From an uncultured Eubacteriales bacterium (GTDB lineage: Bacteria; Bacillota; Clostridia; Oscillospirales; UMGS1783), in contig CAKSHC010000002.1 of NCBI GenBank assembly GCA_934456365.1, forward strand, positions 211,981-275,980: DNA of 64,000 bases, given 5' to 3'. The position numbers and the translations under genes were made by a program. Shown here piece by piece: positions 34,606 through 59,457 of the stretch. Each line of letters opens with the position of its first letter. Positions within the stretch are counted from its first letter, which is position 1. Below the pieces are notes generated by a model, which saw only the letters and a program-made list of their open reading frames with translations, did no database searches and was not told the origin of the DNA.

Positions 34606-35325
34606 TTAGTCCTGCCCCTTCTTGTCGCGAATGCGCTTGTCGCAGCGGGTCGCCAGATGCGTCCCCACCGCCTGGAAAAGCTGCACCAGCAAAACAAGCA
34701 AAATCACCGCCAAAACCATCACCAGGTATTTATAGCGGTAGTAGCCGTAGTTGATGGCGATCTTGCCCAATCCGCCGCCGCCGATCACCCCCGCCATCGC
34801 CGAGTAGCCCAGAATGGTCGTCACGGCAATGGTCGCGTTGGAGATCAGGGAGGGCACCGCCTCGGGGATCATCACCCGGCAGATGATCTGCAGGGGAGAG
34901 GCGCCCATGCTCTGCGCCGCCTCGATCACATTCGGATCCACCTCGCGCAGGCTGCTCTCGCACAGCCGCGCCACAAAGGGGAAGGCCGCGATCACCAAAG
35001 GTACGATCGAGGCCACCGTCCCCACCGAGGTCCCCATCAGAAAGCGCGTCAGCGGGATCACCAGGATCATCAGGATCAAAAAGGGAACCGAGCGCAGGAT
35101 GTTGATGACCACATCGATCAGCTTCAGAAGCGGCTTGGGCAAAGGCATCACCCCGCCCTTTTCTCCCGCCACCAGAAGCACACCCAAAGGCAGCCCGAGA
35201 AGAATAGCAAAAGCCGTGGCCAGAATGGTCACATAAAAGGTTTCCCCCAAAGCCGTGAGGAATTCCGATTCCACAATCCGCCAGGTTTCCTGAAAAACCT
35301 CACTGGAAAAAAGAGCGTCAGCCAC
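34606..35325 (-). CDS. metI: Methionine ABC transporter permease
   Basis: MetI-type EAA loop (IEAAQSMGASPLQII); 5 TM helices. Confidence 0.92.
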   Translation of the reverse strand: MADALFSSEVFQETWRIVESEFLTALGETFYVTILATAFAILLGLPLGVLLVAGEKGGVMPLPKPLLKLIDVVINILRSVPFLILMILVIPLTRFLMGTSVGTVASIVPLVIAAFPFVARLCESSLREVDPNVIEAAQSMGASPLQIICRVMIPEAVPSLISNATIAVTTILGYSAMAGVIGGGGLGKIAINYGYYRYKYLVMVLAVILLVLLVQLFQAVGTHLATRCDKRIRDKKGQD

Positions 35326-36328
35326 GGTCGCTCACCTCCTCGATCACAATATCGGGCACGCTCTGCAAATAGGCAATGGCCTCGCGCGTCTTTTCCGGGC
35401 CTCCCGGAATGGAGAGGATCATGTGCCCGAAGGTCTTGTCGCCGATCGCCTTGGCCGAGGCCGCTAAGATGTTGACCGGGATCTGCTTTTCCATCGCCAT
35501 GCGCGCGATTAGGGGAGTGTGGGTCGATTCCGCCCCGTTGAACACCACCCGGATCACATCCTCCCCGGCCACCGCCGTGAAGGATTCGTTCACCCCTTCC
35601 GGGAAAACCAGCCGCTTGGCCGCGTCGCTTTTGGGCGAGGAGAAAACGGCGCTCACTTCGCCAACCTCCGCCACCGCGCCGCCGTCCAGAATCGCCACAT
35701 GCCGGCAGATCTCCTCCACCACGCTCATCTGATGGGTGATCAGGATCGCCGTGATCCCCAATTTGCGGTTGATATCCCGGATCAGCTCCAGAATGGAATG
35801 GGTCGTCGTCGGGTCAAGCGCCGAGGTCGCCTCGTCGCATAAAAGCACCTTCGGATCGCTCGCCAAAGCCCGCGCAATGGCGATGCGCTGCTTCTGCCCG
35901 CCCGAAAGCTGCGCCGGATAGGCAAGGGCCTTGTCCGGCAGCCCCACAAGCTCCAGAAGCTCGGCCGCCCTTGCGCGCGCCGCCTTTTTCGAGGCGCCCG
36001 AAAGGGTCAGCGGAAAGGCGATGTTGTCCAGGCAGGTTCGCTGCATCAGAAGATTGAAGCTTTGGAAAATCATCGAAATGCTGCGGCGCTTGGCGCGAAG
36101 CTCCTTGGGCGAAAGCCCGGCCAGATCCACTCCGTCGATCCGCACCGTTCCCGCCGTCGGCCGCTCCAGCATGTTGATGCAGCGCACCAGCGTGCTCTTG
36201 CCCGCGCCGCTCATGCCGATGATCCCGTAGATGTCGCCGTCTTCAATGGTCAGCGAAACATCCTTGAGCGCCTCCAGCGTGCCGCTGTCGGTGGAAAAGG
36301 TTTTGCTCAGATGCGATATCTCAATCAT
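35318..36328 (-). CDS. metN: Methionine ABC transporter ATP-binding protein
   Basis: Walker A GMSGAGKST, LSGGQKQR, C-terminal NIL/ACT-like domain. Start at ATG 36328 behind GGGAGGCA; the track ORF is over-extended. Confidence 0.95.
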   Translation of the reverse strand: MIEISHLSKTFSTDSGTLEALKDVSLTIEDGDIYGIIGMSGAGKSTLVRCINMLERPTAGTVRIDGVDLAGLSPKELRAKRRSISMIFQSFNLLMQRTCLDNIAFPLTLSGASKKAARARAAELLELVGLPDKALAYPAQLSGGQKQRIAIARALASDPKVLLCDEATSALDPTTTHSILELIRDINRKLGITAILITHQMSVVEEICRHVAILDGGAVAEVGEVSAVFSSPKSDAAKRLVFPEGVNESFTAVAGEDVIRVVFNGAESTHTPLIARMAMEKQIPVNILAASAKAIGDKTFGHMILSIPGGPEKTREAIAYLQSVPDIVIEEVSDRG

Positions 36329-36386: not shown

Positions 36387-37238
36387 TTATTTCTTGATGG
36401 CGTCGAGGCTGGTCTGCTTGCCACCGTAGATGCCCATCGGCTCCACATGAATATCGGCGATCGAAACCAGATGCGTGCCCTTTTCCTTGTTGAAGTTGTC
36501 CAGATAGGGAACATGCTGGAAGAAGTTGGCGTCGAGCTCGCCCGATTCCACCACATCGTTGGGAATCACATAATCGGTGTATTCCACGATCTTCAGAGTG
36601 ATTTCCTTTTCGGCCAGAATCTCCTGCGCCACCTTCAGAATTTCCGCGTGCGGGTTGGGCGAGCAGGCCACAGACACCGTCTGTCCCTTGAGAGCTTCGT
36701 AGTCCACCGAGGCGTCCGTCCCGTTGCCCGAGTCCTTCACGGCCGAAACCACCGAGCCGCCGTAGGTGCTGCCGATATAATCAGCCACCTTCTGGCTCTC
36801 CAGAGCCGCCTTGAGAGCTTTGATGATGTCCTTTTCCTCGTTGCCGGACTTCACAACCAAAACATTGTTATAGGCCGAGAAGGAATCCTCCAGCGCCAGC
36901 GCGTCGGTCTTGGGCTTGAGGCCTGCGTCGATCGCGTAGTTGGAGTTGATCACGGCATAGTCGGAATCCACCAAAACATTCGGCAGCTGCGCGGCCTCCA
37001 CCTCGTTGAACTGCAGATTGTACGGGTTTTCCACAATGTCGAGCGGGGTCGCCGTCAGACCGGCGGATTCGGAAAGCTTGATGTAGCCCAGGTGCTCAAG
37101 CAAAAGCAGCGCGCGCCCTTCGTTGGTCGCGTCGTTCGGGATGGCGATGGTCATGCCCTTTTTCGCGCCGCCGGCGCATCCGGCGGCCAGAAGAACAGTC
37201 AGGGTCAGAGCGAGGACGAGCGAGAGAATCTTTTTCAT
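36387..37238 (-). CDS. metQ: MetQ/NlpA family methionine-binding lipoprotein
   Basis: Lipobox LLAAGC and NlpA-family body. Start at ATG 37238. Confidence 0.9.
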   Translation of the reverse strand: MKKILSLVLALTLTVLLAAGCAGGAKKGMTIAIPNDATNEGRALLLLEHLGYIKLSESAGLTATPLDIVENPYNLQFNEVEAAQLPNVLVDSDYAVINSNYAIDAGLKPKTDALALEDSFSAYNNVLVVKSGNEEKDIIKALKAALESQKVADYIGSTYGGSVVSAVKDSGNGTDASVDYEALKGQTVSVACSPNPHAEILKVAQEILAEKEITLKIVEYTDYVIPNDVVESGELDANFFQHVPYLDNFNKEKGTHLVSIADIHVEPMGIYGGKQTSLDAIKK

Positions 37239-37270
37239 GGCTTTTGTTTCCTTTCGAATTTTTTTGCATA

Positions 37271-37301
37271 AGAAAAAGCGGGAAGCCCGGAGCTTCCCGC
37301 T
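37271..37301 (-). terminator. Leader (attenuator) terminator upstream of metQ
   Basis: 10-bp stem AGCGGGAAGC/GCTTCCCGCT followed by TTTTTCTT on the minus strand. Sits between the leader ORF stop and the metQ start. Confidence 0.75.
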
Positions 37302-37314
37302 GATGCACAACCCA

Positions 37315-37413
37315 TCAGTCCGCGAAGGCAACCCCGGCACAATCGGCGCAGCAAAACATGCGCATGTCCATCATGCACATCATCGCCATATCCATCGCCG
37401 TAAAACGAACCAT
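37315..37413 (-). CDS. Met/Cys-rich leader peptide (32 aa) of metQNI
   Basis: AGGAGG, 9 nt, ATG, then MVRFTAMDMAMMCMMDMRMFCCADCAGVAFAD and a stop codon. It is the C-terminal end of track ORF 37315..37818. Confidence 0.6.
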   Translation of the reverse strand: MVRFTAMDMAMMCMMDMRMFCCADCAGVAFAD

Positions 37414-37441
37414 GCCGGTTTTCCTCCTCGATTTTTGCCCT

Positions 37442-37470
37442 ATTATATACGAACCCCTCCCGCTTGTCAA
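37442..37470 (-). promoter_or_regulatory. Consensus sigma-A promoter of the met leader/metQNI
   Basis: Minus strand TTGACA (37470-37465), 17 nt, TATAAT (37447-37442). Confidence 0.7.
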
Positions 37471-37531
37471 CCCCCTAATTTGTTTTTTTTTGTCAAATCC
37501 GCGCCCCTTTTGGGGAAAAGGGGCGCTTCCG

Positions 37532-37636
37532 TTACCGCTCGCTCTCGTGCCATTCGCAGCCGTAAAAAATGTAATCGTCCAGATCACCGACCGGCTCGCG
37601 CGCCGTTTCCGTTCCGGCAAAAAGCTCCTGTTCCAT
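37532..37636 (-). CDS. Possible small acidic protein (34 aa)
   Basis: GAGGAGGA RBS, then ATG 37636: MEQELFAGTETAREPVGDLDDYIFYGCEWHESER. Followed by the hairpin GCGCCCCTTTT/AAAAGGGGCGC. Below the track's size cut-off. Confidence 0.25.
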   Translation of the reverse strand: MEQELFAGTETAREPVGDLDDYIFYGCEWHESER

Positions 37637-37720
37637 GGCGTCCTCCTCGTTTTTCTCAGATAATCCAGTATATGATCCGACGCCAAAAAAATACCGGGAA
37701 AAACTTTCATTCCAAACATC

Positions 37721-37752
37721 AAAAGCGGCAAGGCATCGCCTTGCCGCTTTTT
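37721..37752. terminator. Hairpin terminator after the four-helix-bundle gene
   Basis: AGCGGCAAGGC-atc-GCCTTGCCGCT flanked by A4 and T5. Confidence 0.7.
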
Positions 37753-37818
37753 GGAGAGGAATTCAATTTCGAAAAGAAGCCGACTGGAACAAATGAGAAA
37801 ATAGGTGTAACCGATCAC

Positions 37819-38175
37819 TCATTTTTCTGTTCCTTTCGCTGTGTTGATGGAAGCGATCAGCATCCTGCGAATGGTGCCGCATGAATTGTGCAGGGGCTTT
37901 GCTTTCTCACTGTTGATCAGATTGGATTTTTCAAATAGCGCAATCCAGTATTCGGTTTCAAAGCATTCCTTCAAAGCGATCTGAAGCTTTGCAATGAAAT
38001 CCGCTTTTCCATGGGCATAATTGGCTTCATGGATATTTGCGCCAATGCTCGTGGCCGCTCGTTCAAATTGATTGACAAGAGAATAATGTCCCTTAATATT
38101 TTCACAAAGTCGGATTGCTTCTACGGAAAAATCCATGGAAAAATCAACGAGCTTATTTTCCTTCAATCCATTCAC
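37819..38175 (-). CDS. Four-helix-bundle protein (23S rRNA intervening-sequence protein family)
   Basis: 118 aa with family-typical ERAATSIGANIHEANYAHGKADFIAKLQIALKECFETEYW. Visibly AT-richer than all neighbouring genes. Confidence 0.85.
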   Translation of the reverse strand: MNGLKENKLVDFSMDFSVEAIRLCENIKGHYSLVNQFERAATSIGANIHEANYAHGKADFIAKLQIALKECFETEYWIALFEKSNLINSEKAKPLHNSCGTIRRMLIASINTAKGTEK

Positions 38176-38190
38176 CTCTGCAAAAAGTTG

Positions 38191-38377
38191 TTCATGAAAT
38201 ATCGCTGCGCGATATGAAATAATTTGCTGCGTAAATTATGAAATTTTCCGCTTCGCGGAAAGTGAAATAAAATTCGCCTTTTCATATTTGGCAAAGCCAA
38301 ATATTTCATACGCTTTAGCGTATTTCATAGCGAAGCTATTTCACTCGCCGGTAGGCGAATTTCATTGAAAAATGGAC
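38191..38377. repeat. Repeat family B, unit 1 (187-nt hairpin array)
   Basis: Differs from unit 2 at only 3 positions. Seven short GC-cored hairpins separated by TGAAAT (left half) or ATTTCA (right half). Confidence 0.85.
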
Positions 38378-38436
38378 GATAAAAAGGTTTTGTCCGATTC
38401 GGGATTTTTGCGCAGACAAAAAGCGTATTGTTTTTC

Positions 38437-38623
38437 TTCATGAAATATCGCTGTGCGATATGAAATAATTTACTGCGTAAATTATGAAATTTTCCGCTTC
38501 GCGGAAAGTGAAATAAAATTCGCCTTTTCATATTTGGCAAAGCCAAATATTTCACACGCTTTAGCGTATTTCATAGCGAAGCTATTTCACTCGCCGGTAG
38601 GCGAATTTCATTGAAAAATGGAC
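38437..38623. repeat. Repeat family B, unit 2 (187-nt hairpin array)
   Basis: Direct repeat of 38191-38377 at a 246-nt period. Abuts the tRNA-Tyr terminator. Confidence 0.85.
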
Positions 38624-38647: not shown

Positions 38648-38732
<85 letters not shown>

Positions 38733-38735
38733 ATC

Positions 38736-38811
38736 TGGAGCTGGTGAACGGAATCGAACCATCAACCTGCTGATTACAAATCAGCTGCTCTGCCAATTGA
38801 GCTACACCAGC
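38736..38811 (-). tRNA. tRNA-Thr (anticodon TGT), CCA encoded
   Basis: Acceptor GCTGGTG/CACCAGC, anticodon stem GCTGA/TCAGC, loop TTTGTAA. Confidence 0.92.
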
Positions 38812-59013: not shown

Positions 59014-59075
59014 AAAGAGCACCCCTTTCTTTTCTCCAGTATAGCGTAGGGCGCCGGAAAAGTCAAACGGAAAAG

Positions 59076-59107
59076 AAAAAAGGCAGGGCATAAAGCCCCG
59101 CCTTTTT
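59076..59107 (-). terminator. Terminator after the csp gene
   Basis: GGCAGGGC-ataaa-GCCCCGCC (one mismatch) flanked by A6 and T5. Confidence 0.7.
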
Positions 59108-59117
59108 GCCGGTTCTC

Positions 59118-59327
59118 TTACTCAGGAATGACGTTGACCGCGCGCAGCTTGCTCGCGTTCTTGGGATCCTGCTCGGTTTCGAAGGAAACCTTCTGGCCCT
59201 CGTTGAGGGTCTTGAAGCCGTCGACCTGGATCGCGGAGAAATGCACAAAAACATCCTCGCCGCCTTCATCGTTGGCGATGAAGCCATAGCCCTTTTCTGC
59301 ATTGAACCATTTGACAGTACCGGTCAT
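59118..59327 (-). CDS. cspA: Cold-shock protein (CspA family)
   Basis: [17 protein letters not shown]...DVFVHFSAI (RNP1 and RNP2 motifs). Confidence 0.95.
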
Positions 59328-59370
59328 GTTACCGTACCTCCAATAAAATGTTATTCCGATCGAAGGCTAT

Positions 59371-59428
59371 AAAAAACTCACATTTTGTGTAAATCATCAA
59401 CGAACGAATGACTTACATAAAATGTGAG
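59371..59428 (-). promoter_or_regulatory. Terminator-like hairpin inside the csp 5' leader
   Basis: 16-bp arms CTCACATTTTATGTAA / TTACACAAAATGTGAG (one mismatch) with a 20-nt loop, followed by U6. About 45 nt upstream of the csp ATG. Confidence 0.5.
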
Positions 59429-59457
59429 TCGTACAGCGCTGTTCAGAACACGCGTTT

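Follow-up and report, generated by a model that had tools for sequence, protein, structure and literature searches.

The methionine importer operon metQNI of an uncultured Eubacteriales bacterium (GTDB lineage Bacillota; Clostridia; Oscillospirales; UMGS1783) is preceded by a short leader that probably functions as a ribosome-mediated leader-peptide transcription attenuator. The leader lies in a window of 64,000 nucleotides (nt) from contig CAKSHC010000002.1 of assembly GCA_934456365.1, which is the whole stretch of DNA analysed here. As an attenuator, it would be specific for methionine (Met) and possibly also for cysteine (Cys). This reading is supported by a conserved arrangement of Shine-Dalgarno (SD) sequence, open reading frame (ORF) and intrinsic terminator, by linkage to the transporter operon, by the lack of any Rfam family over the leader, by substitution of a T-box for the leader in sister loci, and by the predicted masking of the antiterminator by a ribosome on the stop codon. 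Its core is supported, at the level of sequence, by every comparative test run.

Anatomy, conservation and operon linkage

All coordinates of the window leader refer to the minus strand, and the leader RNA spans approximately 170 nt (Table 1). Its consensus promoter is the sole promoter-like site returned by a sequence scan of 36800-38000 and is followed, 24-30 nt downstream, by a start region in which AGGAGG precedes ATG 37413 by 9 nt. The encoded peptide contains nine Met (codons 1, 7, 9, 11, 12, 14, 15, 17 and 19) and four Cys (codons 13, 21, 22 and 25), and a scan of the whole window returned this ORF as its only Met-rich mini-ORF. The original prediction, made from the sequence of this stretch, had described a TTGACA-17-TATAAT promoter, AGGAGG, ATG 37413 and a 32-codon ORF with nine Met and four Cys, all of which are present. 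It had also placed a terminator directly after the ORF; the stem and T-run were confirmed, and only the distance from the T-run end to the metQ ATG at 37238 needs a trivial correction, from 33 nt to about 31 nt.

Relatives were gathered by a MetQ protein scan of one genome per GTDB species, which yielded 80 metQ loci at 59-71% identity, mostly from metagenome-assembled genomes labelled Oscillospiraceae, Acutalibacteraceae, Ruminococcaceae, Lachnospiraceae or other Clostridia. Conservation of the mini-ORF, proposed earlier as a check, was found at this scale: an SD-preceded Met/Cys-rich mini-ORF occurs upstream of metQ in 38 of the 80 related loci, which with the window gives 39 leader-bearing loci from several families of Clostridia. 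These leaders span 25-48 codons with 5-12 Met and 0-6 Cys, and their peptides share the consensus MK....MMMxMCMxxMCM..(C)A......LS.. In all 39 loci an intrinsic terminator lies no more than about 45 nt past the leader stop. An automatic search placed an SD-like motif 4-12 nt 5' of the start in 37 of the 39; in the remaining two the SD is followed by GTG or TTG as start codon. Boxes similar to the window promoter (TTGACA-17-TAnnnT) stand 5' of several related leaders.

The reading frame of these ORFs is maintained through considerable length variation. Start codon and Met cluster are separated by ten different lengths (1 to 16 codons), yet the start keeps the frame of the AUG run in every case, over a stretch that is non-repetitive. 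The first AUGs of the cluster are found 6-8 codons from the start in most loci, and the second codon is mostly Lys. Leaders of close relatives vary in steps of a whole AUG or AUG-UGC unit (MMM, MMMM and MMMMM, for instance), and mean column identity of the peptide outside the Met/Cys cluster is 31-34%. No stop occurs among 827 flank codons in frame 0, compared with 55 and 33 in the other frames, a count with some circularity, openness having been a criterion for choosing the ORFs; the concordance of frame between start and cluster is the better argument.

The leader is tied to Met transport by its genomic contexts. As predicted, the downstream genes are metQ, encoding a MetQ/NlpA lipoprotein, metN and metI, and a pyridoxamine kinase gene comes next after metI. 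The window peptide is called as a gene in 90 public assembly blocks, always 5' of metQNI. A peptide-profile search of 5.8 billion proteins returned 148 small proteins of 31-75 amino acids (aa) without a Pfam domain which, where named, are annotated as 'hypothetical protein'; one of them, the variant P0045, has entries in 1605 assembly blocks. The genes upstream differ among the contexts of P0045, P0053, P0114 and the window peptide (alanine racemase, a transglutaminase-core protein, polyprenyl synthetase and a 34-aa ORF), and all of these contexts run into Lipoprotein_9, ABC_tran+NIL and BPD_transp_1. At L138:8714-8900 (minus strand), the member MRKSFGLNSMMMGMMCMFRMCMMCRAQNSGSPCFISA and its terminator stand directly 5' of metN in a metN-metI-metQ operon. 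Because the contexts vary upstream and this member precedes metN, the leader belongs to the Met transporter operon and not to its neighbours or to metQ itself. The nearby tRNA genes (Thr and Tyr) include none for Met. A search of metagenome DNA with the pattern ATGTGCATGN{3,6}ATGTGCATG recovered mostly microsatellite-like repeats and one true member, and the pattern is a poor one.

The metNPQ and metQNI operons of Firmicutes are usually controlled by an S-box (S-adenosylmethionine I, SAM-I) riboswitch or by a Met-specific T-box. Rfam scans at gathering and permissive thresholds covered the window and 60 related loci. At gathering thresholds nothing matched over the window leader, SAM and T-box families included, and a permissive scan of 37150-37600, with SAM families to E = 10, gave noise; its best E-value, 0.095, was that of a CRISPR repeat model on the terminator upstream of the leader. 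The earlier remark that no S-box core or T-box was visible is upheld by these scans. Among 20 leader-bearing loci no Rfam cis-regulator was found, T-box included, and four leader peptides compared with NCBIfam and Pfam at E <= 1 matched no family.

A T-box (RF00230, 95-110 bits) occupies the same slot 5' of metQ in eight loci that lack the leader. Since the same model detects T-boxes in these sister loci, its silence over the window leader is meaningful. In L033 the specifier position reads GAAG-AUG-G, and by alignment this AUG would be a Met specifier. Replacement of the leader by a T-box at orthologous metQ genes argues that the mini-ORF does the same job. For other amino acids, orthologous genes that have a T-box in some cases and a leader peptide in others have been reported (PMC2965389).

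Helix P1 and the proposed switch

The RBS (ribosome-binding site) of the leader ORF can pair with the 3' end of the same ORF. This helix, P1 (37430-37409 with 37343-37321), has a duplex energy of -24.2 kcal/mol in the window (z = -3.4) and is prolonged by P1b (37400-37396 with 37348-37344) and P1c (37388-37383 with 37354-37349). Together they enclose a hairpin formed within the Met cluster, P2, and the entire 5' domain folds at -46.9 kcal/mol. The 3' strand of this long hairpin, termed region 2, overlaps at its 3' end the 5' strand of the antiterminator. P1 had been overlooked in the original prediction, which envisaged a switch between two structures; competition of P1 for the same 3' segment makes it a three-way switch.

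P1 covaries across the family. It was assessed by its named pairs and by duplex permutation, as RNAalifold, run on a MAFFT alignment of whole leaders, called P2 as the sole helix because the spacer and terminator are out of register. Duplexes formed between strands of the same locus average -14.9 kcal/mol, compared with -13.4 kcal/mol for strands of different loci (permutation p = 1e-4). In an unguided MAFFT alignment, 79.7% of cells at the named pairs are paired versus 27-62% in slid controls, 11 pairs are changed on both sides, and the covariation score (0.174 versus 0.135) was reached by none of 500 shuffles. Compensated variants include AAAGCA/UGCUUU to AAAACA/UGUUUU in L035, GAGCG/CGCUU in L016 and GGUUGUAU/AUACAGCC in L053. 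Within the leader, the near-identical strain L092 departs from the window at just two positions, C37430U and G37321A, which are the two sides of the outermost P1 pair (C:G to U:A); the latter change is synonymous (GCG to GCA). Permutation, covariation and this compensatory change support P1 as an anti-antiterminator (1:2) helix.

Hairpin P2 has an equivalent (AUGUGCAUG...CAUGUGCAU) in nearly all loci, with 94% of cells paired on the family alignment, and was flagged as terminator-like by a terminator scan. Cys codons in the leaders are predominantly TGC (TGC:TGT = 100:13). The preference for UGC between AUG codons follows from AUGUGCAU, which is self-complementary and forms P2; codon choice alone is uninformative, since metQ has the same bias (53:5). 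The Cys codons may add sensitivity to Cys or may serve P2 only. It may be speculated from the alignment that P2 and the following UUUU form a pause site that couples polymerase and ribosome.

The alternative pairing of the terminator arm with the 3' end and stop codon of the leader ORF, proposed in the original prediction, was recovered by folding as CUUC-G-CG-GA-CUGAUG (37327-37313) with CAUCAG-CG-G-GAAG (37305-37293), a segment that folds at -16.8 kcal/mol. In most relatives the 3' end of the ORF carries a conserved motif, UGCUUUCC (codons xLLS or VLS), complementary to the terminator arm GGGAAGC. The stop codon is located in or beside the antiterminator strand.

The effect of a ribosome was modelled as masked positions in equilibrium folds of the window and of 34 loci. 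With no ribosome, the window leader folds into P1 and the terminator. When the ribosome sits at the stop codon, the terminator arm's upstream pairing falls to 0.04 and the terminator forms, so that the predicted masking of the antiterminator arm by a terminating ribosome is reproduced in silico. With the RBS and early codons masked, the antiterminator forms (0.8-0.87).

In the proposed attenuator, charged Met-tRNA, and maybe Cys-tRNA, would be read through the run of AUG codons interspersed with UGC. Three alternative pairings are predicted: 1:2, between the RBS with the first codons and the ORF 3' end (P1, P1b and P1c around P2); 2:3, the antiterminator, between the ORF 3' end with its stop codon and the 5' arm of the terminator; and 3:4, the terminator. 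Without a ribosome, or once the ribosome has gone, 1:2 and then 3:4 would form and transcription would stop. When Met-tRNA is plentiful, the pioneer ribosome would trail RNA polymerase to the stop codon and cover strand 2, which would again leave the terminator to form. When Met-tRNA is scarce, this ribosome would stall where the cluster begins, on its first AUGs 6-8 codons after the start. There, perhaps still in contact with the SD or with another ribosome queued behind it, it would cover or hinder strand 1, strand 2 would capture the terminator arm, and polymerase would read into metQNI. The productive stall is placed at the first cluster AUGs because only masking of the RBS and early codons gives the antiterminator in the window folds; in these models, release also calls for a 5' strand (RBS and first codons) that is occupied or obstructed. 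The sequences show the anatomy, its conservation, the covariation of P1, the linkage to the operon and the T-box substitution, and we infer that the ORF is translated, that ribosomes stall on it and that the 2:3 pairing acts as an antiterminator, with P2 and its U-run as a possible pause site and Cys as a possible further signal.

P1 would play two roles in this scheme. It would force termination when no stalled ribosome is present, and it would shut the leader RBS once region 2 has been made, which would restrict the reading to the pioneer ribosome that accompanies transcription. Because translation also initiates with Met, any such device poses a design question, and P1 may be the answer to how it works. 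An extended version is a doubtful though conceivable elaboration: a layered system in which antitermination would require occupancy of the RBS in addition to a ribosome stalled on elongator-Met codons, with P1 making the leader read initiation and elongation together, and in which a second, independent upstream ORF (uORF) found in many relatives would be a Met-dependent arrest or release sensor.

Several results weigh against this attenuator reading or against parts of it. The earlier expectation that a stall in the Met cluster frees the antiterminator arm did not hold in equilibrium folds: a single ribosome late in the cluster, at codons 11-21, leaves P1 intact in the window (0.22). Over the 34 loci, antiterminator pairing with a ribosome in the Met cluster (0.48) is not significantly higher than that with no ribosome (0.46, p = 0.16) or that with a ribosome at the stop (0.43, p = 0.31). 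A one-ribosome thermodynamic picture is insufficient, and steric or kinetic arguments, or a second ribosome, are therefore required. Met limitation also lowers charging of the initiator tRNA, which in this design would favour termination. Of the stems examined for covariation in relatives, P1 covaries, and the antiterminator gives no signal beyond conservation: when region 2 and the terminator 5' arm were permuted across loci, p was 0.7, a test that cannot discriminate because most terminator arms share GGGAAGC and both sides are conserved, and pairing compared with shuffles gave a mean z of -0.77. The antiterminator thus rests on conservation, with no demonstrable covariation, and G37321A in strain L092 weakens one of its predicted pairs. 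Conservation of the SD and AUG is partly confounded, as both are nucleotides of P1, and the ORF after the cluster is no longer than expected from chance absence of stops.

Table 1. Elements of the metQNI leader and operon in the window, and T-boxes in sister loci
Feature	Position	Strand	Evidence
Sigma-70-type promoter, TTGACA (37470-37465), 17-nt spacer, TATAAT (37447-37442)	37442..37470	-	12/12 match
SD AGGAGG of leader ORF, 9 nt 5' of ATG 37413	37423..37428	-	read directly from sequence
P1 5' strand: SD, spacer, AUG, codon 2 (anti-antiterminator strand 1, predicted)	37409..37430	-	pairs with 37343-37321
Leader ORF, 32 codons and TGA 37317-37315, peptide MVRFTAMDMAMMCMMDMRMFCCADCAGVAFAD	37315..37413	-	sequence translation
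Regulatory codon cluster, codons 7-19, 8 Met and 1 Cys; proposed ribosome stall zone	37357..37395	-	sequence
P2 hairpin within Met cluster, AUGUGCAUG / CAUGCGCAU, then GUUUU	37358..37380	-	-8.0 kcal/mol in window
Region 2, 3' strand of long leader hairpin; P1 37343-37321, P1b 37348-37344, P1c 37354-37349	37321..37354	-	fold
Antiterminator 5' strand (predicted) CUUCGCGGACUGAUG, includes stop codon	37313..37327	-	pairs with 37305-37293 if terminator 3' arm absent or RBS strand masked
Antiterminator 3' strand (predicted) CAUCAGCGGGAAG, common to terminator 5' arm	37293..37305	-	folding
Intrinsic terminator, stem 37301-37277 and T-run TTTTCTT	37269..37301	-	11 pairs, 7 G-C, loop of 3, -19.6 kcal/mol
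metQ, Met-binding lipoprotein	36387..37238	-	TIGR00363 7e-50, PRK11063 6e-49; Pfam Lipoprotein_9 in identical public contigs
metN, ATP-binding cassette (ABC) ATPase with NIL domain	35318..36328	-	TIGR02314 3e-109; gene call in identical contig L091
metI, permease	34606..35325	-	PRK10782 9e-59
T-boxes 5' of metQ in loci without leader	L012:2589-2840, L031:2579-2827, L033:2579-2826, L044:2344-2575, L046/L050/L057:2657-2888, L049:945-1176		RF00230

Alternative explanations

A leader-peptide device may be read out by a non-classical route, through access of Rho, mRNA stability, or occupancy of the RBS via P1 (initiation, and with it formylmethionyl-tRNA, fMet-tRNA). P1 does sequester the leader RBS, the fold flips to the antiterminator only when the RBS and early codons are masked, the antiterminator lacks covariation, and in many relatives there is a second uORF that lacks a downstream terminator. 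Against such a route stand the intrinsic terminator, which is invariably present, and the complementarity of its 5' arm to the ORF 3' motif in most loci. Were initiation alone sensed, Met starvation would shut down the importer, a response of the wrong sign. A non-classical read-out is unlikely to account for the leader by itself, and it is possible as a modifier of attenuation.

A translation-independent RNA switch would dispense with the ribosome altogether: the leader would be a riboswitch or protein target, with P1, P2 and the AUG/UGC repeats serving as an aptamer or TRAP-like site and the ORF being incidental. P1 and P2 are conserved structures, P1 covaries, and what is conserved in the peptide is in large part conserved as nucleotides (UGCUUUCC and the preference for TGC over TGT). 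The confounding of SD and AUG with P1 helps this explanation as well, conservation of these nucleotides alone being no proof of ribosome binding, as does the chance-like length of the open stretch past the cluster. Yet the start follows a strong SD by 4-12 nt in essentially all loci, and it agrees in frame with the AUG run over ten spacer lengths of non-repetitive sequence, all multiples of three. Second codons are rich in Lys (MK...), as in real genes, and the stop codon coincides with or adjoins the antiterminator strand. The number of AUG codons varies freely between close relatives, which would be odd for an aptamer, and no SAM or Met-related family of Rfam matches. An RNA switch of this kind is quite improbable.

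Lastly, a functional small Met/Cys-rich peptide (metal-binding, redox or the precursor of a ribosomally made, post-translationally modified peptide, or RiPP) sharing the metQNI promoter, with an ordinary terminator, would be in keeping with the general binding of soft metals by Met/Cys-rich motifs, with the calling of the ORF as a gene in many assemblies and with its identical sequence across strains, but it is scarcely credible for a peptide of 25-48 aa that is barely conserved outside the Met/Cys cluster, differs in Met number between near-identical relatives, has variable upstream neighbours and no modification, export or immunity genes beside it in the contexts examined, and comes with a terminator before its sole conserved neighbours, an RBS-sequestering helix and replacement by a T-box, all of which are hallmarks of a cis-regulator.

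Relation to known systems and nearby elements

Leader-peptide attenuation is textbook knowledge for Trp, His, Leu, Thr, Phe and Ile/Val, and control by Met in Gram-positive bacteria is attributed to the S-box, the T-box or protein regulators. The metQNI leader resembles trpL, hisL, leuL, thrL, pheL and ilvL of Proteobacteria in having a short SD-preceded ORF rich in cognate codons and an intrinsic terminator before the structural genes. In its predicted folds it also shares with them the overlapping 1:2, 2:3 and 3:4 pairings, a stop codon by strand 2 and termination as the default. Unlike these leaders, it would use AUG (and UGC) as regulatory codons, its strand 1 is the SD and start region of the leader and not the regulatory codons, its target is an importer and not a biosynthetic operon, its hosts are Clostridia, and it has neither a sequence relationship to them nor a match to a leader family in Rfam. 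In relation to the S-box and Met T-box, the leader has the same slot, the same operon and, as proposed, the same terminator/antiterminator output; it differs in that the proposed sensor is a translating ribosome and not a SAM aptamer or tRNA-binding RNA, and the Rfam models of both are unmatched.

Closer parallels within the Firmicutes are reported from Bacilli, where a His leader precedes hisS/hisZ (PMC2965389), and from Staphylococcus aureus, whose ilv-leu has a Leu-rich attenuator peptide (PMC5794164). With these the metQNI leader shares a probable ribosome-mediated attenuation in Gram-positives, where T-boxes and riboswitches are usual, and the alternation of leader and T-box. It differs from them in amino acid, genes and taxa, and in its covarying RBS-sequestering helix.

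Sulfur amino acids are already represented among uORFs of Actinobacteria. Mycobacterial polycysteine uORFs are leaderless, contain Cys codons only and act on translation at the RBS of the next gene, without an intrinsic terminator (bioRxiv 10.1101/834739). Cys leader candidates were reported in Actinobacteria in a 2005 survey, which found no RNA-level Met regulator of this type in that phylum (PMC1262725). In these uORFs, as proposed for metQNI, a run of sulfur-amino-acid codons serves as the sensor and ribosome stalling remodels the RNA downstream, whereas the metQNI leader has a strong SD, favours Met over Cys and always carries an intrinsic terminator.

No description of a Met-codon leader attenuator was found in the literature searched, peptide strings included, although coverage was incomplete and a report in a subscription journal is possible; this agrees with the original prediction, whose author knew of no established class. 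The mechanism as such is known, and what appears new is the Met specificity, the RBS-containing helix as strand 1, the importer target and the hosts, which are abundant gut Clostridia. A very common 'hypothetical' small gene of abundant human-gut Oscillospirales would accordingly gain an annotation as a cis-regulator. The leader could also provide a simple sequence marker for Met-regulated transport in uncultured species, and a small genetic part responsive to Met might be made from it. The sister loci in which a T-box takes its place offer a clear natural case of regulator turnover.

Another small ORF accompanies the operon in relatives. In 33 of the 80 loci the interval separating metQ from the leader terminator (or T-box) holds a second uORF of 13-25 codons that has its own SD, as at L054:2822-2986, L071:2872-3010, L015:2795-3016 and L033:2827-3001. 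Its 3' end is invariant, CGAAUGUG: Arg, in every case CGA, precedes Met, and what comes next is either a stop (UGA) or Cys (UGC/UGU). It is often trailed by a small hairpin (GUGUCC..GGACAC) and has no intrinsic terminator. In L012, L031 and L033 a T-box is followed by the same uORF. It has no match in Rfam, Pfam or NCBIfam. The window lacks it, the interval 37268-37239 being too short. This uORF could be a second checkpoint, of the arrest type or linked to Rho.

Several other elements were encountered in the window, all on the minus strand. A match to the cspA thermoregulator (RF01766) at 59075-59456 scores 80.7 bits against a gathering score of 78; it is unexpected for a Clostridia-like genome and may be borderline. 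At 38188-38623 there are two copies of a 190-nt direct repeat, 98% identical and 246 nt apart, each of which contains a Gut-1 RNA (RF01706, 60-61 bits; 38298-38367 and 38544-38613), and these repeats adjoin the tRNA-Tyr and tRNA-Thr genes (38648-38811). Immediately upstream of the leader promoter, a 34-aa ORF with its own SD (MEQELFAGTETAREPVGDLDDYIFYGCEWHESER, 37532-37636) is separated from it by a strong terminator (GCGCCCCUUUUCCCCAAAAGGGGCGC, 37492-37529). This ORF matches nothing in Pfam or NCBIfam. Four public contigs have the same leader, and each annotates the ORF as a gene, including those whose genes farther upstream are different. Between the Gut-1 repeats and the met leader lies a gene for a four-helix-bundle protein (37819-38175; TIGR02436, the 23S rRNA intervening-sequence protein family). 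Of the four otherwise identical public contigs, L092 has this gene and the other three lack it, and the spacer upstream of the met leader is therefore strain-variable.

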